Below, piece after piece: positions 1,387 through 12,013 of a stretch of DNA of 32,000 nucleotides. The position numbers and the translations under genes were made by a program. The notes under the pieces were generated by a model. It saw nothing but the letters and a program-made list of their open reading frames with translations, did no database searches and was not told the origin of the DNA. The DNA lies in contig NZ_CP064923.1 of assembly GCF_018336915.1 (NCBI RefSeq), positions 3,870,001 to 3,902,000 on the forward strand, written 5' to 3'. Positions within the stretch are counted from its first letter, which is position 1. Each line of letters opens with the position of its first letter. Source of the DNA: Acaryochloris marina S15. GTDB lineage: Bacteria > Cyanobacteriota > Cyanobacteriia > Thermosynechococcales > Thermosynechococcaceae.

Positions 1387-1872
1387 ATGAATCGGGGTCG
1401 CATTACTGTTTCTATCCTGATAATTAGCCTACTCACTGCTGGAGGGATGGCAATACAACTATTCCGGCAGCATCGTCAAAGCTATGTCCTAACCTTAGCG
1501 ACAGCAAGTCGATCCGGTGAATACTATAAATTTGGTCAAGCACTAGCAACGGTTGTCGCTCGCCATCATCCTCAGATCCGGATTAACGTCATTCATACAG
1601 AAGGCTCAGCGCAAAATCTGGAATTCATCGAATCAGGGGCAGCCCAGTTAGCCCTAATCCAGGGAGATTCATCGATCCAATCATCGGCGCAGGCTATGAC
1701 GTTACTTTTCCCTGAGACAGCTCATGTCCTAGTCAATAGACAGGCTAGCATCGAAACGATGGCAGATTTGCAAGGGAAAGCAGTTGCTTTGCCTCCCAAA
1801 GGGAGTGGTGCTTATCAATTATTTATGCCGATTGCCCAGCATTATGGCTTAAACCTACATTCAGCAGGCTAG
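1387..1872 (+). pseudogene. Truncated TAXI-family TRAP-transporter solute receptor (N-terminal half only)
   Basis: The 161-aa ORF has an N-terminal TM/signal segment and TAXI-like sequence (LTLATASRSGEYYKFGQALA...HTEGSAQNLEFIESGAAQLALIQGD). Full-length TAXI receptors are about 320 aa. The frame stops exactly where the transposase-like remnant begins, and no TRAP permease gene is adjacent. Confidence 0.65.
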
Positions 1873-2054
1873 CTAGCAGAGCAGATAATATTTTTTACAG
1901 CCCTTCCCAAGGAACGGCAAGATAAGTTGCTGCCTGCTGTTGAGCTTGATGAATGTAGGTTGAGTACTTCTGGCAAGCCCATTTGCATCATCATGTGGAG
2001 CAGGAGTACTACATCATCAATACGCTCAGTCGTAACGGTTAGTTGATCTGCCAT
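1869..2054 (-). mobile_element. Remnant of an IS4/IS1634-group transposase gene (N-terminal ~35 codons only)
   Basis: The first ~35 aa (MADQLTVTTERIDDVVLLLHMMMQMGLPEVLN) resemble the conserved N-terminus (..ER.DD.PLL....MGL...L) of cyanobacterial IS4-group DDE transposases, recalled from memory. The rest of the 61-aa ORF is unrelated low-complexity sequence and no DDE domain follows. Confidence 0.45.
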
Positions 2055-2288
2055 GACACAGTCCTAGCTTGATTGCTAGATGAGCATACGCTGATTATCT
2101 TTATGCGATTTGATTACGCGAACGTCAAGAGTCAACATTAATTAAAAAATCAACGAATTAGAAGCTCTCATTGATAAAGCCACCTGATAGACATGAGGTG
2201 AGCTTGACATTGTTTACTAGGTAAATGCAGGCTTAGAATATTCTATTTTTTCTTTGCAAGAAGTGATAAAAGCGGACTGGGTTAAGAT

Positions 2289-2332
2289 AAGGGCATGATA
2301 ATGTAGTATTTATACTACATTATCATGCCCTT
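2289..2332. repeat. 44-bp near-perfect palindrome (21-bp arms, 2-nt centre) 37 bp upstream of the nucleotidyltransferase cassette
   Basis: AAGGGCATGATAATGTAGTAT-TT-ATACTACATTATCATGCCCTT read directly from the sequence. It is followed by a T-rich tract (TTCCAATTTATTTT). Confidence 0.9.
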
Positions 2333-2368
2333 TCCAATTTATTTTAGAAAACTTGGAAACTACAACTC

Positions 2369-3304
2369 ATGAAACCCCATTTGATTGTGCCGGTGGGTAC
2401 CCAAGTGGTCAGCCGGGTCGATGTTAATACTGAGTCCGGTGTCTGTTTAGCAGGAGCTGTAGGCAAGATTGTTAGAACACCCACCGATAACTCCCATTCC
2501 TATGAGATTGAACTGCCCGATGGCCGCTGTTTACATTTACAGCGGCACCAGTTTAGCCTGCGCAAACAGTATCAAATCCAAGGGCTTCCCGACTTTTTAG
2601 CAGACTACAACTTGCAAGATTACGTGATTTATCGCTGTGTTGTCGGTTCGCGGGCCTATGGCTTGGATGATCAGTATTCAGATTGCGATCGCAGGGGCAT
2701 TTACCTCCCCCCAGCCCCCTTGCATTGGTCCCTGTATGGCATTCCCGAACAAATTGAAGATAAACCCGCTCAAGAATGCTATTGGGAGCTGCAGAAGTTT
2801 ATTGTTTTGGCCCTCAAAGCCAATCCCAATGTGCTGGAATGTCTCTATTCCCCCCTAATTGAAACAGCCACACCCCTAGCGCAAACGCTCCTGGACCAGC
2901 GGACGATGTTTTTATCCCGGTTGGTTTATCAAACCTACAATGGCTATGCCCTCTCCCAGTTCAAAAAAATGGAGCAGGACTTGCGGACCAAAGGCCACAT
3001 CCGTTGGAAACATGCCATGCATCTGATTCGGCTGCTGTTGTCTGGGATTACCGTCCTCAAGGAAGGGTTTGTCCCCGTGGATATGAGTGACTATCGCGAA
3101 AAACTGTTGGGGATAAAATACGAGCACTGGACTTGGTCCCAGGTGGATCAGTGGCGGCTACAGCTCCATCGGGAGTTTGAGCAAGCCTTTGCCCAAACCC
3201 AGCTACCAGAACGCCCCAATTATGAACAAGCCAACGCTTTTTTGATCGAAGCACGACAAAGCATGGTGCAAGACAAGGAGATCCAGTCATGGCAAATTCA
3301 ATGA
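2369..3304 (+). CDS. Pol-beta-superfamily nucleotidyltransferase (PF10127/RlaP-like) with an extra ~85-aa N-terminal beta-rich domain
   Basis: The 311-aa ORF carries the minimal NTase signature GSRAYGLDDQYSDCDRRG (G-S-x-x-Y-G ... SD-x-D) and a downstream LECLYSPLI helix shared with the third gene. Its stop overlaps the next gene's start (ATGA at 3301..3304). Confidence 0.75.
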   Translation: MKPHLIVPVGTQVVSRVDVNTESGVCLAGAVGKIVRTPTDNSHSYEIELPDGRCLHLQRHQFSLRKQYQIQGLPDFLADYNLQDYVIYRCVVGSRAYGLDDQYSDCDRRGIYLPPAPLHWSLYGIPEQIEDKPAQECYWELQKFIVLALKANPNVLECLYSPLIETATPLAQTLLDQRTMFLSRLVYQTYNGYALSQFKKMEQDLRTKGHIRWKHAMHLIRLLLSGITVLKEGFVPVDMSDYREKLLGIKYEHWTWSQVDQWRLQLHREFEQAFAQTQLPERPNYEQANAFLIEARQSMVQDKEIQSWQIQ

Positions 3305-3645
3305 TGGTAATTGCCCCCTATCGGTATGAAGAAATGTGGGTATTTGACGATCCGCAAGCGGGCTTGGTTCAAGAACCCTTTGTCAGCGGTATTCCCCAAA
3401 TGATCGATCGCTTAGTGATCGATATTCCAGAAGCTGACCAGGGATTTAAGCTGATTTTTGCTCAAACCCCTTTTCCGGGGTATCAGGCTCAGCTAGAGTG
3501 GCTGCGGCCAGAATTTGGTGGCCATTGGTATCGCTGGTCGGCAGAGAAGATGGATGGATGGCTCTGTCCAGCCCTGTTCAAATACTTTGCAGATGCACCG
3601 CCCCAGCTGTTTTGCCAAGCCGAGGCCAAATCCCATGATCTTTGA
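3289..3645 (+). CDS. Small conserved-looking protein of unknown function (Trp/aromatic-rich, no catalytic motif recognised)
   Basis: The 118-aa ORF is wedged between the two NTase genes and overlaps both. The start is either ATG 3289 or ATG 3301 (ATGA overlap with the upstream stop). Its stop at 3643..3645 lies 11 nt inside the next gene. Confidence 0.6.
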   Translation: MANSMMVIAPYRYEEMWVFDDPQAGLVQEPFVSGIPQMIDRLVIDIPEADQGFKLIFAQTPFPGYQAQLEWLRPEFGGHWYRWSAEKMDGWLCPALFKYFADAPPQLFCQAEAKSHDL

Positions 3646-4396
3646 TTTACCGCCTCAGCTTAAAGATGTCGTGGCACAACAGCCTTATCCCCTGCTGTTT
3701 GCCACCATTAGCGGTGCCCATTTGTATGGGTTTCCCTCTGCTGATTCAGACTATGACTTGCGAGGCGTTCATATCTTGCCCCTGAAGGAAGTGATGGGTC
3801 TACAGACAGGACCCGACACACGAGAAATCTCTGCCGATCAGGAGGGTATCGAGCTGGATCTGGTGACTCACGATGTCAAGAAATTTATGGGGTTGCTGCT
3901 AAAGCGAAATGGCTATGTGCTGGAGCAGCTCTACTCTCCACTGATTGTAGCGTCGTCTCCTGAGCATGATGCATTGAAAGAGATCGCAACCCGATGCATC
4001 ACTCGGCACCATAGTCATCACTACCTGGGATTTGCCCAGACCCAATGGCGACTCTTTACCAAAGAATCCCCAGCCCGAGTCAAGCCCCTGCTCTATGTCT
4101 TTCGGGTGCTACTAACAGGAATTCATCTGATGCAAACGGGCGAAATTGAAGCCAATCTCAGGCATTTGAACGAGAAATTTCAATTGCCTTATATTCCCGA
4201 TTTAATCGCCCAAAAATCATTTGGTCCAGAACAAGCCGTGATTAAAGAGACTGATCAGGGGTTCTACCACCAAGAATATAGTCGTCTTTTACAGTGCCTA
4301 GAAAATGCTAGCCAGTCCAGCATCCTCCCAGACAGCCCCTCTGCTGCAGCTGACCTCCATGATCTGTTGGTCAACATTCGGCTGGCTGCTTGTTGA
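3635..4396 (+). CDS. Pol-beta-superfamily nucleotidyltransferase (PF10127/RlaP-like), paralog of 2369..3304
   Basis: NTase signature GAHLYGFPSADSDYDLRG plus LEQLYSPLI. The ORF-track start at 3515 lies inside the previous gene; the in-frame ATG at 3635 (MIFDLPPQL...) gives a 253-aa protein beginning just before the NTase fold. Confidence 0.75.
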   Translation: MIFDLPPQLKDVVAQQPYPLLFATISGAHLYGFPSADSDYDLRGVHILPLKEVMGLQTGPDTREISADQEGIELDLVTHDVKKFMGLLLKRNGYVLEQLYSPLIVASSPEHDALKEIATRCITRHHSHHYLGFAQTQWRLFTKESPARVKPLLYVFRVLLTGIHLMQTGEIEANLRHLNEKFQLPYIPDLIAQKSFGPEQAVIKETDQGFYHQEYSRLLQCLENASQSSILPDSPSAAADLHDLLVNIRLAAC

Positions 4397-7300
4397 GGTG
4401 GGTTTTAACACAGTTAATTAGCTCTGGCGTCGAGAACCCTTTATTCAAATAATCGTTGGCCCCTAAGCGTTCTGCCTCTTTTCCCCATTCTTCAGAGAGT
4501 CGAGACGACACGACCAAAATCGGCATTTCCATATCGGACTGCCGACAGCGGTCAATTAACGTGAACCCATCCATATTGGGCATTTCTACGTCGGTAATCA
4601 TCATATCTGGCACGCCGTTGGCCTGCAGCCATTGCCAGGCCTCTAGGCCATCGCTGCAGGTAAAGGTCGCAAATCCGTAGGTATTCAGGCTGCTCTCCAA
4701 CCGCCGACGCATCAGGGCAGCATCATCCACCACCAAAATGGTTTGGACGTCCTGAGCCACTGGGGTACTGGGTTGTTCCTGAACTTTGCTGGTTTGGGGC
4801 TGTTGTTGAGCCAAAGACCGAGCAAGTTCCAGGGGATCTAAAATACTCAGCAACTGACCATCGGCTTGTAAACTTACCCCCATGAGGGCTGGTGGACTGA
4901 TGAGGGGATGGGGCAGAGGTTGAATGAGAAGTTCTTCTTGGCCCAACAAATCATCCGCAATTAACCAAACATCACTGTTGTCTAGCAGGGAGATGCGAAC
5001 ACAAATAGCCGTGTCCGACACTTGGGTTGATTCATGCCAAAATGCTGCCAACCCATAGCCCGGTGCAGAGCCTTCCTTCAGGGAGAGCTGCCAGGTTAGA
5101 TCACTGTCTTTTGGCGGCTGCAGTTGGTTCGCACTCGCCAAGAGGGTTTCCCGAATGTCATCTGTGGGTACCGCCACCGTCCGTTCCCCGACTTTGAGTA
5201 GGACACAAGGGACTAATAGCTGCGGAGCAGGAATTTCAATAATAAAAGTGGTGCCTTGTCCCAACTGGGTATCTAGCAGTAACCGGCCACCAATATTGGT
5301 AATTTGATTGGCAACCACATCCATGCCGACGCCTCGACCCGAGACTTCGCTAACGGAGCTGCGGGAGCTGAAACCGGGCTGGCAGAGCACAGCAATAATG
5401 TCGGCGGGCGTGTTGGTTTGGGTTAGGGGAAAGCCCCGCTCTTGGGCAATCTGACTAACTTTCTGACCATCAATCCCTTGACCATCGTCTTGCAGCAATA
5501 GCCGATATAAATTTCCTCGCCGCTCTAGGGTCATTTGAATGGTGGCCTGCACTGGCTTGCCGCGCTCTAGTCGCTCATCCATCGTCTCGATGCCATGGTC
5601 ATAGGCATTGCGGAGTAAGTGGAGCAAGGCCGGTTCGAGTTGTTGGACGACCCCTGCATCCAGTTCGACTTGCTCACCTTTAATGTCTAAACGGGCGGGC
5701 TTATCGTAGCGATTGGTCAAGTCTCGCAGGATGGCTCGGGCCCGGAGGGTGAGATTACTAAAGGGAACCAGGCGACTGGTTTCAATACCATCTTTGAGCT
5801 GAGTAATGTTGCGACTGAGCTGCCCCAAATTGCTGACGGTGTGTTGAGTAGTGCCTTCTAGCTCTGCCCCTAGCTCTGCCATCCGCAAGATATTTTCTAA
5901 GAGGCGATTAATGGTGGTGTAACCCTGGCGGTAACGTTCCATCGAGACGCCACTGTCAGAATCTTGCACGTCACTGATATCGCGCAACAAAGCATAGTCA
6001 TCCTGGAGTTGTCGGAGTCTAGAAATATATTCTGCGCTTTCTTGAGTAAGGGCCGTCAGTTGGGACAGTTGGGATTGGAGGGTTGAAGACTCATTAAAGG
6101 TTGACCGTGCCGTCAGCAGGGTCTCGACCACTTGTTGAGAGGATTGATTGAGTCGGCTTAAAGGAACCGGAATTTTGATTTCCCGCTTTGTGGGAGCCGG
6201 AGCTGCAGGAGCCGTAGATGGCTTAGCGCTAGGGAATAGGCCAGGCTGGGAGGATGACTCAACAGAGTCCGCTACAGCGGCGGGCAGATCTGGCAGATCG
6301 CCGGTGCCTAAATCTAGGTCGATGAGGTCATCGAAGTCCATGTCATCGGCTTCTGCCAAAAACTCATCGGACAAATCAGCCATATCATCTAGATCGGCCA
6401 TGTCATCCAGATCGGCTGCCTCAGATTGATCTTCAGCAATGGCACCAGAGAGGACAGATTCAGCAGGGGTCATTGCTGCCAGATCCAAGTCCATCTCATC
6501 GAAACTTAGATCAATATCCCCATCCAAGTCATCAAAGCTGAGATCTGCATCGAGATCGATATCTACATCTAGGTCATCAAAGCTAGTGTCAACCGCCCCT
6601 GGAGATACTGCTTCAGCTTCCTGAGCGGGGGAGGGGACTTGAATCGGTTCTTCTGGCAGTGATGTGATTAGCGTGTCGAACCGCTCTTGTTGGTCAGGGG
6701 TTAACTGACCACTTTGCTTAGCACAGTGCTTGAGTAAATCAAAGTACACCGGCCATTGCTGACGCCATACATCAGTCAATGGAAACTGCTGGAGCTGAGA
6801 GGCACTCTCTATCAGCTTGGACCAATCCTCTGCCAATTGGAGATCCTGACCAATTTGTTGGAGCTGGCTCAACATTTGCTGGGCCTTGGTCAAGGCTGGG
6901 GAGGAAACCTGGGGGGTATTCAGCTGATTGACAGCCATTTCTAGTTCTAAAATGACTAGATCGAAACCTTGTTCTGCAAATTCCTGATGAACTTGGGTCA
7001 ACTCATCCCAGTTGGGCAGATAGTTCAGCTGAATCTGCTCATGCAGGGTTTTGATGCGGTCAACCGTCGGAGTGACTGCAGTTTGGGCTTCGGGGCCCGA
7101 TAGCTGCAAACAACTCCCCAGAAGTTCACCTGCTTCTAGGAGCATGCGATGCAAGACCCCATCTTCTAGGGGAGGTGCTTCTTCTAAATAACGCAAATCA
7201 GAGAGCAGGTCCTCTAGGACCATGGCAGCATGGAGAACCGCATCGGCCCCTACCGTGACCGCACTCCCTTTAATCGTGTGGATAGCCCGATAGATATTCT

Positions 7301-7556
7301 GGATATCTGCAACCCAGGAGGCTGGATTGAGGGATTGAGAGAGCTGAAAATAGGACCGCAGATGCTCTTGACTGTCAATCTCGAACATGGCCTGCAGTTC
7401 TTTCTGCAGCTCAGCTTCAGGATCGCTGATTGCAGGATTGACGGGGGACGAATAGGAGAAGTCGGGGTCAGTCATCATCTCGGTAGGACGAAAAAGGTCG
7501 GTTTTATGGAGCGGTGGTTCGGTGAATCCAGTCCCCCTGTTAAGACTCAGCCGCAA
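4371..7556 (-). CDS. Hybrid CheA-like histidine kinase (Hpt - acidic linker - dimerisation/HATPase - CheW-like - C-terminal receiver); PilL/HmpE/PixL class
   Basis: Hpt motif HTIKGSAVTVGA, HATPase region (LLHLLRNAYDHGIE...GRGVGMDVV), a CheW-like domain and a C-terminal REC (ILVVDDAALMRR...DVEMPNMDG...). The true start may be the ATGATG at 7478 (MMTDPDF...), which would remove the 17-bp overlap with the upstream MCP. Confidence 0.9.
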   Translation of the reverse strand: MRLSLNRGTGFTEPPLHKTDLFRPTEMMTDPDFSYSSPVNPAISDPEAELQKELQAMFEIDSQEHLRSYFQLSQSLNPASWVADIQNIYRAIHTIKGSAVTVGADAVLHAAMVLEDLLSDLRYLEEAPPLEDGVLHRMLLEAGELLGSCLQLSGPEAQTAVTPTVDRIKTLHEQIQLNYLPNWDELTQVHQEFAEQGFDLVILELEMAVNQLNTPQVSSPALTKAQQMLSQLQQIGQDLQLAEDWSKLIESASQLQQFPLTDVWRQQWPVYFDLLKHCAKQSGQLTPDQQERFDTLITSLPEEPIQVPSPAQEAEAVSPGAVDTSFDDLDVDIDLDADLSFDDLDGDIDLSFDEMDLDLAAMTPAESVLSGAIAEDQSEAADLDDMADLDDMADLSDEFLAEADDMDFDDLIDLDLGTGDLPDLPAAVADSVESSSQPGLFPSAKPSTAPAAPAPTKREIKIPVPLSRLNQSSQQVVETLLTARSTFNESSTLQSQLSQLTALTQESAEYISRLRQLQDDYALLRDISDVQDSDSGVSMERYRQGYTTINRLLENILRMAELGAELEGTTQHTVSNLGQLSRNITQLKDGIETSRLVPFSNLTLRARAILRDLTNRYDKPARLDIKGEQVELDAGVVQQLEPALLHLLRNAYDHGIETMDERLERGKPVQATIQMTLERRGNLYRLLLQDDGQGIDGQKVSQIAQERGFPLTQTNTPADIIAVLCQPGFSSRSSVSEVSGRGVGMDVVANQITNIGGRLLLDTQLGQGTTFIIEIPAPQLLVPCVLLKVGERTVAVPTDDIRETLLASANQLQPPKDSDLTWQLSLKEGSAPGYGLAAFWHESTQVSDTAICVRISLLDNSDVWLIADDLLGQEELLIQPLPHPLISPPALMGVSLQADGQLLSILDPLELARSLAQQQPQTSKVQEQPSTPVAQDVQTILVVDDAALMRRRLESSLNTYGFATFTCSDGLEAWQWLQANGVPDMMITDVEMPNMDGFTLIDRCRQSDMEMPILVVSSRLSEEWGKEAERLGANDYLNKGFSTPELINCVKTHLNKQPAEC

Positions 7557-9495
7557 CGGCTAAGGGAATATTGGCTGATTTCAGGTCAGGATCAGATAGA
7601 CTATCTTCGGCCATCGTCTTGAGCTGGAAGAATTCCACCATATTGGCGAGGTTATGGGCTAACTCTCCCATGGAAGCCGCCTGCTCTTGGGTAATGTTGG
7701 CTTGGGAGGCTGAATCTTCCGCTTCGCGGGCAATGGTTTGAGTGGCGATGAGTGTACTTTGCACCGCCTCAAAAATGTCGTCATTGGCTTGGCGGACCTC
7801 CTGTCCTGCTAAGGCGACTTGGTCAGTAGCAGCCTGCATATTGGTAAAGGCTTGTCGGGATTTACCCACCTCATCCGTAAACTTATTCACGAGCTGGTTG
7901 ATATCGCCCACATCCTGAGTAAGACCTGATGTTACGGTCTGAATTTGATCCGTTCGTTGCTGGAGCTGAGCTAGGGTCTGGTTGGTTTCAGCGGCCAAGT
8001 CATTGACTTGGCGAGAGATGGTGTCAAATTCTTTGGCAATACTGGCAAATTGGGTGGGGTCTTTTTCTTTTAAGGCCCGAGTGGAAAGCATAGAAGCATT
8101 CAAGGCCAAAACGCGAGTCAGAGAGGCGACACGTTTTTGATCTTTAGAGAACTGGGCGGCCAGATCCACAAATTCATTCAAGAGCTGGGTTCGTTTCACG
8201 ATCTGTTCGGTGCCCTCTTCCAGGGTGGAAATTCCCTGCACCATCGCGTTCATTTCCTGCTGACCGGTTTCAACGGCGGCTTTGGCTAGGTCCAGGGCGT
8301 TCTCGGTGGTGGTGGCTTGCTCCCGAGAATTGGTCGTTAGGGTGTTGACGTTTTCCATGAGCGATCGCACATCCGTAACGGACTGTGTTTGGCTTTGGGC
8401 CCGCTCATTGGTCTCAACTGCTAAGGTTTCTAGCTGTTCCGTATTATTCGAAATTTCGCTAGCAGTGGTAGAAACCACCAACATAATCCGGTGCAAAGAT
8501 TCAATTAGACGATTGAGGGTATCTGAGATCAGACCAGTGGCGCGGTCGTTGACCTGAGCTTCAATGGTCAAGTCTCCATATTCAATGGCTGAAACCACAT
8601 CCAAAATATGACCCACATCTTCTTGGAACAGCTCGCTCTCCGCTAAAATGGCTTGTTCTTGGGTAGACCGTTGTTCCAGCTGAGCTTCTAATTGCTGGTT
8701 CACCATTTGTAGATCCACTTTTGATGATTCCAAAGCAGCTTGAGATCGCTTCCGTTCTCGGATATACCCCTGAACCGCTAGAAAGACGATGTACCAAGTC
8801 AGTGCCGACACGGCCAAACTAACGAGCGCAAAGGACAAAGACCAAGTCAATCGTTGCCGATAAATACCCAACTGGGTCTGCACGTTGTTCTTAACCGTTT
8901 GCAACGTCCCCTGAATCCCATCGTTGTAGATTTTTTTCTGAGCTTCATACTCAGGACCCAGGAGTAACTTTAGGGCTTCGGGGGCTTTTTGCTGACGGAC
9001 TAACGCAAAGGCCTGTGTTTCGAAGTCCACTAACTTTTTGTTGGCTTCATCTGTTTGCCCAGGGTTCGATTGCTCGGCAACGGGGACCTGATCCAATAGG
9101 CTGCCAATGGCGATATCTAGCTGGGGTACATATTCGTTGTATCGATCTTCCCATCGCGTATTGCCGGTACTTGCTCCCATCCGTGCCGACATGGTCAGCA
9201 CTTCGTCCAAATGCACAATGGAGCCACTCAACTCTTGCAGTTCAAACTCTTTAGCAATTGTTGTTTCTAGCCCCTGATTAATCCGCCAGATATTCCAAGC
9301 AGAGGTACCTGTGAGGGCCAAACTGACTAAAACAGATGCTGAAATGGTACCAACTAAGTAATTCTGTAAGCGCTGTTGCACGCGCTGAAGCCAAGAGCCC
9401 TGATCATTTTCCTCTATGGAAACCGCTGAAGATTCAACCTGCTCGATAGGAGCATCTTCAGATAGGGGAGAAAGGGATGGGCCAGTCATCATCAT
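7540..9495 (-). CDS. Methyl-accepting chemotaxis protein (two TM helices flanking a ~190-aa periplasmic sensor, HAMP-like segment, MA signalling domain); PilJ/HmpD-like
   Basis: The 651-aa ORF has a conserved signalling hairpin region (LALNASMLSTRA) and a HAMP-like VNDRATGLISDTLNRLIESL. It is a paralog of the adjacent MCP. Confidence 0.9.
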   Translation of the reverse strand: MMMTGPSLSPLSEDAPIEQVESSAVSIEENDQGSWLQRVQQRLQNYLVGTISASVLVSLALTGTSAWNIWRINQGLETTIAKEFELQELSGSIVHLDEVLTMSARMGASTGNTRWEDRYNEYVPQLDIAIGSLLDQVPVAEQSNPGQTDEANKKLVDFETQAFALVRQQKAPEALKLLLGPEYEAQKKIYNDGIQGTLQTVKNNVQTQLGIYRQRLTWSLSFALVSLAVSALTWYIVFLAVQGYIRERKRSQAALESSKVDLQMVNQQLEAQLEQRSTQEQAILAESELFQEDVGHILDVVSAIEYGDLTIEAQVNDRATGLISDTLNRLIESLHRIMLVVSTTASEISNNTEQLETLAVETNERAQSQTQSVTDVRSLMENVNTLTTNSREQATTTENALDLAKAAVETGQQEMNAMVQGISTLEEGTEQIVKRTQLLNEFVDLAAQFSKDQKRVASLTRVLALNASMLSTRALKEKDPTQFASIAKEFDTISRQVNDLAAETNQTLAQLQQRTDQIQTVTSGLTQDVGDINQLVNKFTDEVGKSRQAFTNMQAATDQVALAGQEVRQANDDIFEAVQSTLIATQTIAREAEDSASQANITQEQAASMGELAHNLANMVEFFQLKTMAEDSLSDPDLKSANIPLAVAAES

Positions 9496-9544
9496 GTGTA
9501 CCTAGTGTCAGTGGACCAAATAATTGGGAATGGATGTCGGGAAT

Positions 9545-12013
9545 CTAAACTGCAAGTGCTGACTCGGATGAGGTGGATTCTTCAGGTTCTTCAGCAGAAA
9601 TAGAGTCTTCGGATTGTTCAGCAAGAATAGAGTCTTCGGATACGGAATCTGACGTTAACTCCTCAGATTCTCCTGCAGGAATGAACGATTCGGATGACTC
9701 AGGAAGTAGAGTTTCCTCAGATTCCTCAGCAAGCGTGAATTCGTCGAATTGCCCCATAGGAACAGATTCTTCAGATTCCAATCCAGGAGTGAATTCTTCA
9801 GAGTCTATAGCAGGAAATAGTGCCTCGGATTCTGCAGCAGGAGTGAACGCTTCAACCTCCGCAACAGGAGTGAGTTCTTCAGTTTGCCCAACAGGAACAG
9901 ATTCTTCGGATTCTTCAGTAGAAACAGATTCTTCGAATTGTTCAGCCGTCGTGAATTCCTCGGATTCCAATGCAGAAGTTAACTCTTCGAATTGGGCCTC
10001 AGAAGTGAATGCTTCCGATTCCGCGATCGGACTTAATTCTTCAAATGGTTCATCAGCCGTGAATTCTTCTGATTCCGCAATCGGTCTTAATTCTTCGGAT
10101 GGTTCATCGGCCGTAAATTCCTCAGGTTGCGGAGAGGGAGACGTTTGTAGAATGGTGAAATCTTCCTCTTCTGGCAGAGTGAAGACTTGAACTTTCCCTA
10201 ACAAGTCATCGGAAAGCAGGTTCATGGCATCTGCTAACTGTTGCGCATCATCCGACTGGCTCGCAATTTGAGTCGAGAGTTGGGCAATCGCCTCCATGGT
10301 CATTGCCGTTTGTTCCGAGGTCTGAACAATATCTTCACTGGTCTTGGCCACTGTTTCACCGGACTCTACCGCTTGCCCCGTCACCTCCTGCACCTCTTGG
10401 AACACAGATTGGGTATGTCGAACCCCTTGGGTAAAGTCATCCACCACGCCGCCTAGACGTTGCACATCGGCATCCACATCGGCCACAACACGGTGAATTT
10501 GGGCGCTTCGTTGTTCTAGAGAACCGAGTCCGTCGTTAGTTTTTTGAGCGAGTTGGCTCACCTGGTTGGCGATGGATTCAAATTCTTGAGCCACTTGAGC
10601 AAACCTCTTAGGATCGGATTGTTCCGAGGCTCTTGCTGCCACCAACGCTGCATTCAAAGCCAACATCTGAGTTTGTTCAGCAATGTCTCCTTGGTCCTGC
10701 ACAAATTGATCGGTCAAACCCACGAATTCCCCTAGGGTTTTCATCTGCTGCACGATGCGATCGCTACCCTGTTGCAGTACATCAATTTCTTCACCCAAAG
10801 AGCCAATCTCAACTTGACCTTGAGCCACAGCAGTATTGAGGGTCACCAAAGACCGATTGGTCGTCGCCAATTGCTGAGCAGCGTTGGTGGCAAAGGAGCG
10901 AACGTCATTGATCAAGCCCAATACCTGCATCACTTCTTGGGATTGCTGATCAGTGTTCCGGGCCACAACCTCGGAAATATCTTTTTGGCGGGTACTGCTA
11001 GCCGAAACTTGGCGGGACGTTGCCGAAACCTGGGTGAGAATACTGCCGAGCTCTTCAATTAAGCGGTTGAGGGTATCTGCAATTAAGCCGGTGGCTCGAT
11101 CATTCACCGTTGCTTGGATAGTAAAGTCTCCCTCTTCGACGTTGGCAACCACATCCAGTAGCTCAATAATGTCTCCTTGCAATTGGTCATTATCCTGGCG
11201 GGCCTCTTCTTCCTGCTGCTTCCGAGAATCGATCTCTTCCTGGAGTTGGCTATTCAAAACCAATTGATCGAGCTGGGATTGATTAATCTTGTCCTGGGAG
11301 TCTTGTTTATCTCGGACGTAGTCACGGACGGCAACTAAAACCAAAATCCAGCCTGCCAACAGGATGGGGAAAGCCACCAAGCCGGCAAAACCAATGGAAT
11401 TTTTGAGTTGGTTTTGAGAAGTCTCTAGCTGTTGGTCAATAAAGATCTCAATGCGTTTCGTGACCTGTCGATTGCCTTCTGTATATTGGGCTTTAAGGAG
11501 TTCGTATTCTTCCCCTGCCAGTAGTTTTTGTGCATCTTCCGCCTTGTTAGCCTTGACCAGTCCAAACGCCTGCTCTTCCAGTTCAATCAGCCGTTTGTTG
11601 GCTGCATCCGTTTTACTCGCATCGGCCCGGATGTCCTCAGTAACATTGTCAAAGGTTTGAGCGATGGCTTGATCCAATAAAGGAACATGTTGCTCGTAGC
11701 GTTGTAGCCATACCAAATCCCCCGTGCTAGCGGCCATGCGCGCCGACATGGTGAGCACTTCATCGAAATAGGTAATTTCCCCAGTATGCTTTTGCAGCTT
11801 AAGTTCGCGTTCAGCAATCTGTTCTAGGTTGCGTGAACTATTCCAGATACTAACCCCACAGCCTGCTGTCACTAATAGGCTAGTGGCAACAGATATGGAA
11901 AGGGTTGCCACTAAGTTCTTTCTAACAAACTGTTTAGCGTGGTGTAAGGGAGAGTAATACTGGATCGAGAAGGCTTGATCCGAGATGCTGGGCTGAAGTT
12001 GATCAGAGTTCAT
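9545..12013 (-). CDS. Methyl-accepting chemotaxis protein with a 192-aa acidic tandem-repeat C-terminal tail; PilJ/HmpD-like
   Basis: The 822-aa ORF has the same architecture as 7540..9495 (DEVLTMSARMAASTG sensor motif, VNDRATGLIADTLNRLIEEL, MLALNAALVAARA). It also carries a C-terminal EEFT-repeat extension. Confidence 0.9.
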   Translation of the reverse strand: MNSDQLQPSISDQAFSIQYYSPLHHAKQFVRKNLVATLSISVATSLLVTAGCGVSIWNSSRNLEQIAERELKLQKHTGEITYFDEVLTMSARMAASTGDLVWLQRYEQHVPLLDQAIAQTFDNVTEDIRADASKTDAANKRLIELEEQAFGLVKANKAEDAQKLLAGEEYELLKAQYTEGNRQVTKRIEIFIDQQLETSQNQLKNSIGFAGLVAFPILLAGWILVLVAVRDYVRDKQDSQDKINQSQLDQLVLNSQLQEEIDSRKQQEEEARQDNDQLQGDIIELLDVVANVEEGDFTIQATVNDRATGLIADTLNRLIEELGSILTQVSATSRQVSASSTRQKDISEVVARNTDQQSQEVMQVLGLINDVRSFATNAAQQLATTNRSLVTLNTAVAQGQVEIGSLGEEIDVLQQGSDRIVQQMKTLGEFVGLTDQFVQDQGDIAEQTQMLALNAALVAARASEQSDPKRFAQVAQEFESIANQVSQLAQKTNDGLGSLEQRSAQIHRVVADVDADVQRLGGVVDDFTQGVRHTQSVFQEVQEVTGQAVESGETVAKTSEDIVQTSEQTAMTMEAIAQLSTQIASQSDDAQQLADAMNLLSDDLLGKVQVFTLPEEEDFTILQTSPSPQPEEFTADEPSEELRPIAESEEFTADEPFEELSPIAESEAFTSEAQFEELTSALESEEFTTAEQFEESVSTEESEESVPVGQTEELTPVAEVEAFTPAAESEALFPAIDSEEFTPGLESEESVPMGQFDEFTLAEESEETLLPESSESFIPAGESEELTSDSVSEDSILAEQSEDSISAEEPEESTSSESALAV
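9584..10123 (-). repeat. About 10 degenerate 54-bp (18-codon) tandem repeats inside the MCP coding region
   Basis: Protein units are EEFTADEPSEELRPIAES / EEFTADEPFEELSPIAES / EAFTSEAQFEELTSALES / EEFTTAEQFEESVSTEES / EESVPVGQTEELTPVAEV / EAFTPAAESEALFPAIDS / EEFTPGLESEESVPMGQFD / EFTLAEESEETLLPESS / ESFIPAGESEELTSDSVS / EDSILAEQSEDSISAEEP. The DNA shows recurring gaattcttc(a/g)gattc strings. Confidence 0.85.

Follow-up and report, generated by a model that had tools for sequence, protein, structure and literature searches.

We analyzed a 32,000-nt stretch of DNA from the cyanobacterium Acaryochloris marina S15 (contig NZ_CP064923.1, positions 3,870,001 to 3,902,000; hereafter the window), with a focus on a three-gene cassette at positions 2369-4396 of the window. 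The first and last of these genes (gene 1 and gene 3) code for a 'long' and a 'short' nucleotidyltransferase (NTase) of the RlaP family, respectively, and the gene between them (gene 2) codes for a protein of the DUF6717 family. We propose, with moderate confidence, that the locus encodes a heteromeric RlaP-type RNA 3'-terminal nucleotidyltransferase with two active sites, one contributed by gene 1 and the other by gene 3, and that DUF6717 is a facultative accessory of this enzyme. The RlaP family is known, and the locus represents a paired or fused variant of it.

Open reading frame (ORF) calls place all three genes on the forward (+) strand, with overlaps at both junctions (Table 1), as an earlier note prepared from the sequence alone had described. 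The overlap of genes 2 and 3 that was given there is exact to the nucleotide (11 nt, 3635..3645), and GAGG is present upstream of it at 3622-3625. The junction between genes 1 and 2, in contrast, requires correction. The earlier note had placed it at the ATGA that is present at 3301..3304. However, because 45 members of the DUF6717 family align from an ATG at 3289 (MANSMMVI in gene 2 versus MSNAMMVI in the consensus), and because this ATG is preceded by a Shine-Dalgarno-like AAGGAG, gene 2 most likely starts at 3289 and would overlap gene 1 by 16 nt (3289..3304). The length of 118 amino acids (aa) that the earlier note itself gave for gene 2 already implies this start.

Table 1. Features of the cassette and its borders; positions are those of the window.
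Feature	Position	Strand	Description
Truncated solute-binding protein gene + insertion sequence (IS) fragment	1387-2054		PF16868 NMT1_3, profile positions 1-137 of 289, first half only
IS1634-family transposase fragment	~1849-1952		Follows truncated NMT1_3 gene
Perfect inverted repeat/hairpin, 21+21 nt	2289..2332	+	37 nt upstream of gene 1; arms 100% complementary
Gene 1	2369..3304	+	'Long' RlaP-family nucleotidyltransferase, 311 aa
Gene 1 N-terminal extension, ~aa 1-84	2369..2620	+	Beta-rich, conserved; outside Pfam match
Gene 1 NTase motif, G93-S94 ... D105-x-D107	2645..2689	+	Third acidic residue, E140, at 2786-2788
AAGGAG, Shine-Dalgarno-like	3275..3280	+	Within gene 1 coding sequence, 8 nt before gene 2 ATG 3289; direct sequence reading
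Gene 2	3289..3645	+	DUF6717 protein, 118 aa; overlaps of 16 nt with gene 1 and 11 nt with gene 3
Gene 3	3635..4396	+	'Short' RlaP-family nucleotidyltransferase, 253 aa from ATG 3635
Gene 3 NTase motif, G27 ... D39-x-D41	3713-3757	+	D80 at 3872-3874
Convergent 3' overlap, 26 nt	4371..4396		Gene 3 versus CheA-like hybrid kinase gene, 4371..7556 (-); ORF coordinates

This compact arrangement is not kept throughout Acaryochloris. Genes 1 and 2 of A. marina MBIC11017 and of one metagenome-assembled genome (MAG) are separated from gene 3 by 2.6 kb of DNA that carries three genes on the opposite strand, and tight translational coupling is therefore strain-specific. Another Acaryochloris locus (L008) has the same three-gene insertion and lacks gene 2. 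The inserted genes (6933-9914 in MBIC11017, L005; 6945-9760 in L007; 6915-9491 in L008) encode two proteins of 389 aa and 206 aa, together with a small protein that is membrane-like; by eye, the C-terminus of the 389-aa protein resembles the receiver of a response regulator. A scan for promoters and terminators returned a number of sites no higher than that expected by chance.

Profile searches against Pfam confirmed the assignment of both flanking genes to RlaP (PF10127) that the earlier note had proposed. Gene 1 was matched over residues 85-293 (E 1e-42, 147 bits) and gene 3 was matched more strongly still (E 9e-54, 183 bits), both well above the family cut-off of 23 bits. NTase families of the PHROG collection also matched the RlaP proteins of the cassette, and a scan of NCBIfam with the three cassette proteins returned no matches. 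Aligned over 167 aa, genes 1 and 3 share 28% identity (E 1e-16), with VLECLYSPLI in one aligned to VLEQLYSPLI in the other. The paralogy previously proposed on the basis of their NTase signatures and this shared LYSPLI stretch is thus upheld; the two are old paralogs.

Both paralogs carry the signature of polymerase beta-type NTases (G[SG], DxD, and a third carboxylate), with E140 of gene 1 aligned to D80 of gene 3. Each catalytic position is either invariant or conserved to at least 85% in the orthologs of gene 1 (G93, S94, D105, D107, and E140 in alignments of 41 and 81 sequences) and of gene 3 (G27, D39, D41, and D80 in 67 sequences), so neither paralog resembles a dead enzyme. Orthologs of gene 1 with identities of 64-74% are encoded by many cyanobacteria outside of Acaryochloris. 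In several orthologs of gene 3 (P0258, P0262, P0263, P0265, P0274, P0284, and P0308), the N-terminus bears an additional CPCC domain (PF14206) that is rich in Cys.

The AlphaFold2 model of gene 1 shows an NTase domain plus a helical domain, with strands at residues 86-140 and helices at residues 141-306, modeled with high confidence (predicted local distance difference test score, pLDDT, of 85-95). An N-terminal NTase domain followed by a C-terminal helical domain is the architecture of RlaP, and Foldseek places the model among two-domain NTases. The N-terminal extension that distinguishes gene 1 from gene 3 was modeled with low confidence (pLDDT 29-64), and conserved residues within it include P8, G10, T11, G29, P38, D40, Y45, and R59. 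Searches with this extension yielded nothing in Pfam, even at E up to 10, and the sole lead among sequences in the PDB was the LBR Tudor domain at a non-significant E of 0.16. Across the PDB sequence searches, which used both single proteins and profiles, the only matches were to plectin, the LBR Tudor domain, and a glutathione S-transferase, all at E of at least 0.15.

A scan of one genome per species identified 80 loci with close orthologs of gene 1, all of which were cyanobacterial. In 69 of them, an ortholog of gene 3 follows on the same strand (69 of 72 if only the loci with enough flanking DNA are counted). Of the 11 loci in which it is missing, eight offer at most 1.1 kb of downstream sequence; a gene 3 ortholog is absent despite 2.9 kb or more of such sequence in only three (L027, L052, and L064). 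The two genes are also close to each other, with 200 nt or less between the end of the gene 1 match and the start of the gene 3 match in 51 of the 69 pair loci, and several of their junctions are 4-nt ORF overlaps. Clustering of the flanks of the 80 loci revealed no neighbor that was universally kept, only synteny within genera.

Fusion of the two genes was detected in a wider search. An exhaustive HMMER search of 1.84 billion representative proteins with gene 1 as the query identified 6159 relatives, and the best 150 of these included eight single chains of 483-687 aa that were matched in two or more stretches. We scored these proteins with profiles constructed from gene 1 orthologs, gene 3 orthologs, and DUF6717. 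The N-terminal half of the fusions scored best with the gene 1 profile (316 bits in P0368, the N-terminal module included) and the C-terminal half with the gene 3 profile (271 bits in P0368); none of the eight clean fusion proteins contained a DUF6717 segment. The fused chains retain both NTase motifs, most of them also carry the N-terminal extension of the gene 1 type, and the order of their modules (gene 1-type followed by gene 3-type) is the order of the genes in the window. The fusions group into several clusters, with sequence differences of more than 50% between them; they are encoded on multiple independent contigs, and one cluster has a member from the Planctomycetota.

Near-universal adjacency and single-chain (Rosetta-stone) fusions are the strongest indications obtained here that genes 1 and 3 function as one unit. 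That the two act together, as the heteromeric NTase pair envisaged in the earlier note would, is therefore very probable. The co-conservation of all three genes, which that note had put forward as a check on gene neighborhoods, holds for the pair and fails for the trio; as judged from the loci compared, it is the pair that is the conserved unit.

Genes that act on RNA ends recur within or beside orthologous pairs. A Thg1-like 3'-5' polymerase (PF04446 and PF14413) is encoded between genes 1 and 3 in three loci (L022, L024, and L047), one of which (L047) has the order gene 1, PNK-like kinase, Thg1-like polymerase, and gene 3. PNK-like kinases of the AAA_33 type also adjoin the pair in L041 and L042 and are encoded two genes downstream of it in L034 and L039. 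Pnkp, a kinase-phosphatase-ligase, is likewise encoded two genes downstream of the pair in L067, where it is not followed by Hen1. In two metagenomic loci (L084 and L085), an RNA ligase (PF09414/PF21189) is positioned between DUF6717 and gene 3, with gene 1 preceding DUF6717. Lastly, a gene 3 ortholog with an N-terminal CPCC domain (P0284, 67% identical) is part of an operon with the order Hen1 - x - RlaP - x - Pnkp. These ligase, Thg1-like, PNK-like, and Pnkp/Hen1 genes support, in orthologous loci rather than in the window, the computational link between RlaP and RNA repair that the earlier note had cited, and the gene orders indicate that orthologous clusters recurrently acquire RNA-end enzymes. 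RlaP is said to have been named by Burroughs and Aravind in 2016, reportedly for its association with RNA ligase and repair genes.

What such an enzyme may do is indicated by two RlaP proteins from Pseudomonas, PfRlaP and PaRlaP. Both prefer Mn2+ and add one or two nucleoside monophosphates to the 3'-OH of RNA, and neither accepts DNA or protein; a mimic of cleaved tRNA is the favored substrate, and the aminoacylation of a tRNA that is missing one nucleotide is partly restored (Carruthers, Fatma & Huang, bioRxiv 10.64898/2025.12.29.696909). With this preprint from December 2025, the statement in the earlier note that no biochemical characterization of RlaP was known is outdated. No description of the paired or fused form of RlaP was found in the literature compared, a set that did not extend to Burroughs & Aravind 2016.

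Gene 2 is a member of DUF6717 (PF20475; E 1e-11, 45.6 bits against a cut-off of 27) and shows the family-invariant residues W17-V18-F19-D21, E29-P30-F31, and G90-W91-L92-C93-P94-A95-L96. We identified 3516 homologs, with identities of about 60-70% among cyanobacteria; gene 2 is matched at 99% identity by a protein of Acaryochloris sp. 'Moss Beach'. The AlphaFold2 model of gene 2 is mostly beta (pLDDT 85), and its matches to solved structures in the PDB with Foldseek were none better than E 0.1 (Rpb8-like barrels with template modeling scores, TM-scores, below 0.5). We do not claim an oligonucleotide/oligosaccharide-binding (OB) fold for DUF6717. The model also matched a protein of Synechococcus phage S-SRM01 (E 1e-8, TM 0.82) that is confirmed as DUF6717 by Pfam (MW015081.1, 5959-6432; 32 bits). 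The neighbors of the phage gene all code for hypothetical proteins, with a DUF6267/phrog_455 gene two genes before it. A protein of Cellulophaga phage phi17:2 has the same fold.

The distribution of DUF6717 differs from that of the RlaP pair. Among the 69 pair loci, DUF6717 was located between the two RlaP genes only in Acaryochloris (L004-L007 and L009) and was absent from the remaining 64. The earlier note had suggested an adaptor role for gene 2 in a stoichiometric complex; an obligate adaptor of this kind is not supported, given this absence and the absence of DUF6717 from the eight fusions and from Acaryochloris locus L008. DUF6717 mostly occurs alone, as in Gloeothece (two genomes), Nostoc HK-01, and a further metagenomic lineage. 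We further compiled 80 metagenomic DUF6717 loci, of which 61 have a guanine-cytosine (GC) content of at least 0.5; these are probably non-cyanobacterial, and not one has an RlaP gene nearby. Among the 19 low-GC loci, a gene 3 ortholog is immediately downstream of DUF6717 in six (a fragment in L092, and L094, L095, L102, L108, and L164), and the same order is found in Aerosakkonema. The full trio was identified in Acaryochloris, in L095 (GC 0.35), and in L084, and thus in at least three lineages that range in GC from 0.35 to 0.50. DUF6717 is thus a recurrent but facultative neighbor, specifically of the short paralog, and this recurrence of the trio leaves a facultative accessory role plausible. 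The pattern fits an ancestral trio with differential loss and also fits repeated recruitment.

Other neighbors of DUF6717 were also recorded. A small gene upstream of DUF6717 is common to L087 and L088/L089 only. In six low-GC, cyanobacteria-like loci (L002, L087, L090, L092, L094, and L099, which include Nostoc sp. HK-01 and Aerosakkonema), DUF6717 is next to and divergent from EgtB/C/D-like genes with the domains expected for ergothioneine synthesis (DinB_2+FGE-sulfatase, GATase_4, and Methyltransf_33); this association probably reflects synteny only. In Aerosakkonema (L087, 6567-10313), DUF6717 and a gene 3-type RlaP are followed by a gene for a 1248-aa protein that, by eye, has a TIR-like N-terminus and many WD40-like repeats.

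The slot between genes 1 and 3 also houses genes other than DUF6717. A C69-like hydrolase with an N-terminal Cys (~311 aa; an Ntn hydrolase) is encoded between the RlaP genes of Coleofasciculus loci L026, L034, L036, L037, L039, L040, and L052 (most at ~7080-8030), sometimes along with an additional 200-aa gene, and a coiled-coil protein takes this position in Pantanalinema. Together with the three opposite-strand genes of A. marina, these insertions raise the possibility that the slot simply accepts unrelated genes and that DUF6717 reached its position through neutral shuffling, with no functional tie to the RlaP genes. Its absence from 64 of the 69 pair loci and from every fusion, and its solitary occurrence in Gloeothece, Nostoc HK-01, and all of the loci with GC of at least 0.5, are in keeping with this explanation. 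However, DUF6717 directly precedes gene 3 in six of the 19 loci of low GC, as well as in Aerosakkonema and the three lineages that carry the trio, which is far above what is expected by chance for two given genes in a genome of ~6000 genes, and DUF6717 is translationally coupled on both sides in the window. We regard neutral shuffling as a serious contender to account for gene 2, albeit one that we would not bet on.

Collectively, these observations lead us to infer a physical heteromer, an RNA substrate, a role in RNA repair in vivo, and a role of some kind for DUF6717. The products of genes 1 and 3 would be two halves of one heteromeric enzyme with two active sites. The long subunit would contribute its extra N-terminal, beta-rich module, perhaps for substrate binding, and the short subunit would consist of a minimal NTase domain and a helical domain. 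An RNA end healed by this enzyme could then be religated or reused, such that the locus would provide the end-healing step of RNA repair. DUF6717, which is co-translated with the pair here, would be a facultative accessory of the short subunit rather than a core subunit.

Several observations weigh against this proposal. No gene for an RNA ligase or kinase, Thg1, RtcB, or Pnkp is present in the window, and the link to repair rests wholly on a minority of orthologous loci, roughly one in seven. Binding between the products of genes 1 and 3 is a prediction from adjacency and fusions. Genes 1 and 3 are split in MBIC11017 and in two MAGs, and co-transcription is therefore not required. The characterized RlaPs are single proteins that are encoded in RtcB operons and belong to a different subgroup, so the substrate or product of the pair may differ from theirs. 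The closest solved folds are those of Hailong HalB and aminoglycoside NTases, with TM-scores as low as 0.33-0.46. DUF6717, for its part, is encoded in few pair loci and in none of the fusions, and it is common on high-GC contigs with no RlaP nearby.

An alternative to a heteromer is that genes 1 and 3 encode independent RlaP enzymes that differ in their RNA substrates or nucleotide preferences and that are merely co-regulated, for example to carry out sequential additions without forming a complex. Each paralog has a complete active site, and their divergence is ancient (28% identity). In three Acaryochloris loci the two are kept apart by 2.6 kb of opposite-strand genes, and in some lineages gene 3 follows DUF6717 although gene 1 is not adjacent. 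A precedent is provided by the split CC-adding and A-adding tRNA nucleotidyltransferases of Synechocystis and Deinococcus, which collaborate without forming one enzyme. However, single-chain fusions in the same order, in several sequence-diverse clusters, and near-universal adjacency with very short or overlapping junctions are patterns that are more typical of subunits; the two proteins are therefore likelier to be subunits than to be merely co-regulated. We accordingly view two independent enzymes as rather unlikely.

A more elaborate version of the two-subunit proposal would have gene 1, DUF6717, and gene 3 form an ancestral cyanobacterial operon that encodes a previously unrecognized three-component machine for the repair of RNA ends. 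The paralogs would then be an obligate heterodimer with differentiated sites, and DUF6717 would serve the short subunit as a novel factor for RNA ends or substrate specificity. The two RlaPs might add different nucleotides, or catalysis might fall to one while its partner positions the RNA; the pair-only, DUF6717-plus-gene 3, and fused forms would all be derived states. We consider this version improbable.

The remaining alternatives concern the genomic setting, and in particular whether the cassette is an accessory module. The truncated gene and IS remnant that the earlier note had reported upstream of the cassette are both real, and 99 bp of this region (1854-1952) are 100% identical to a stretch of a plasmid of Acaryochloris sp. 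'Moss Beach'. Between Acaryochloris strains, synteny is lost precisely at the start of gene 1. However, only this upstream border is rearranged; on the downstream side the cassette remains syntenic with the taxis operon. Core chromosome makes up the remainder of the window (a CheA/MCP taxis operon, MenD, MenF, MenA, DnaJ, NAD kinase, UvrC, and the glycogen synthase GlgA), and the GC content of the cassette (0.50) is similar to that downstream (0.50-0.53). Orthologs occur throughout Acaryochloris and in many other cyanobacteria, are near-ubiquitous in filamentous cyanobacteria, and are found in varied core contexts. The orthologs are ~65-70% identical across cyanobacteria, as expected under vertical descent, and the cassette itself is vertically inherited. 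Given its native composition, widespread orthologs, and single rearranged border, neither a genomic or defense island nor the accessory status previously suggested for the cassette is supported.

The HIP1 site (GCGATCGC) that had been noted within gene 1 at 2685..2692 is real and is one of 10 HIP1 sites in the window. The earlier note had taken it as a sign of long residence in the host, but a single site in 2 kb matches the host average. It is the sole HIP1 site of the cassette and falls on the codons (gat tgc gat cgc) that specify the catalytic D105-C-D107-R motif of gene 1.

Despite this setting, the cassette could be an anti-phage defense or toxin-like module, as the earlier note had also suggested. 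It would comprise either a HalB-like NTase that synthesizes a signal or an NTase toxin that modifies tRNA, with DUF6717 as a sensor, antitoxin, or effector. The best match of the gene 1 model among solved structures is in fact HalB of the Hailong system (9dbj, E 4e-4), DUF6717 homologs are encoded by two phages, and the giant protein encoded after DUF6717 and RlaP in Aerosakkonema is TIR-like and WD40-like by eye; the IS fragment, truncated gene, and break in synteny upstream would also be in keeping with such a module. Yet because the TM-scores of the HalB match are only 0.33-0.46, with a root-mean-square deviation of ~11 Å, the resemblance amounts to a shared two-domain NTase fold that is generic to KNTase-like proteins. 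Searches of PADLOC-DB 2.0 with the three proteins returned zero matches at E up to 1 in a library that is dated 2023 and may lack Hailong. No effector-like gene (channel, nuclease, or HEPN) is adjacent to the cassette; its neighbors are housekeeping genes, its GC content and HIP1 density are native, and the recurrent partners of its widely distributed orthologs are repair enzymes rather than defense genes. A defense or toxin role is thus very unlikely. Less likely still is the adenylylation of antibiotics or metabolites by KNTase/ANT-type activity, for which Foldseek matches to ANT(4') and AAD(9) could be cited (E about 2e-3 to 1e-2), as these matches reflect a shared fold only, the Pfam family is RlaP rather than an ANT family, RNA-end enzymes adjoin orthologous loci, and characterized RlaPs label RNA only (bioRxiv 10.64898/2025.12.29.696909).

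Two features at the borders of the cassette merit description. The hairpin upstream of gene 1 is present in a single copy in the window and has a z score of -6 for RNA folding. Acaryochloris locus L007 keeps a palindrome at this position despite changes on both arms, and a scan of positions 1900-4600 against Rfam returned no family, only sub-threshold matches of generic hairpins to the palindrome. The hairpin is possibly a 5' untranslated region element, a terminator, or an operator. At the opposite border, no terminator lies between gene 3 and the convergent kinase gene, whose product has Hpt, HATPase_c, CheW, and Response_reg domains; the 3' overlap of the two genes also occurs in A. marina MBIC11017.

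For annotation, these results move the locus from a 'possible defense island' to an 'RNA-repair-type nucleotidyltransferase pair'. They also point to a large and well-conserved branch of the RlaP family that exists as a long/short pair, is fused in other phyla, and would form a heteromeric enzyme with two active sites, whereas the first RlaP biochemistry dates only from late 2025 and covers only single-gene enzymes from Pseudomonas. Pairing could explain how the correct nucleotide is restored without a template, or how addition is limited to one or two nucleotides. For DUF6717, a family of more than 3500 proteins with a cyanophage member and no relative of solved fold, a functional tie to the short RlaP subunit is a testable hypothesis and a first lead.

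Comparison with known systems places the cassette closest to RlaP itself, as represented by PfRlaP and PaRlaP of Pseudomonas and NrdC.11 of phage T4. The proteins belong to the same Pfam family, share GS...DxD and a third carboxylate, and have an N-terminal NTase and a C-terminal helical domain, and a minority of the orthologous loci likewise include RNA ligases or other repair genes. The Pseudomonas genes, however, are single genes in RtcB-RtcA operons, whereas those described here are an adjacent, diverged pair that is fused elsewhere; gene 1 has an extra N-terminal module of ~84 aa, and the window lacks a ligase. Orthologs of the two RlaP genes lie within or next to bacterial Pnkp/Hen1 and Thg1-like/PNK RNA repair operons, whereas the pair in the window, like most cyanobacterial pairs, is detached from kinase, phosphatase, ligase, methyltransferase, and Thg1 genes. 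Gene 2 is a typical DUF6717 member with invariant WVFDD, EPF, and GWLCPAL motifs; the family has no assigned function, and the link to RlaP applies to a subset of its members only.

The split CC-adding and A-adding tRNA nucleotidyltransferases of Synechocystis, Deinococcus, and Aquifex are a functional parallel, in that two related, template-independent NTases act on one RNA 3' end, in cyanobacteria as well. They belong to the class II PolyA_pol family (PF01743), unlike RlaP, and are not known to be encoded by neighboring or fused genes. Hailong HalB (PDB 9dbj, 9dbh) resembles the gene 1 model in its NTase and helical domains, but identity is only 12-14%, and the cassette has no HalA-like partner gene or membrane effector, being flanked by the truncated solute-binding gene with its IS fragment and by the CheA-like kinase gene. 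KNTase/ANT(4') (PDB 1kny) has the same two-domain fold class but acts on small molecules, and its structural similarity to the gene 1 model is weak (E about 3e-3). KNTase works as a dimer, and it thereby offers a precedent for an enzyme built from two protomers.

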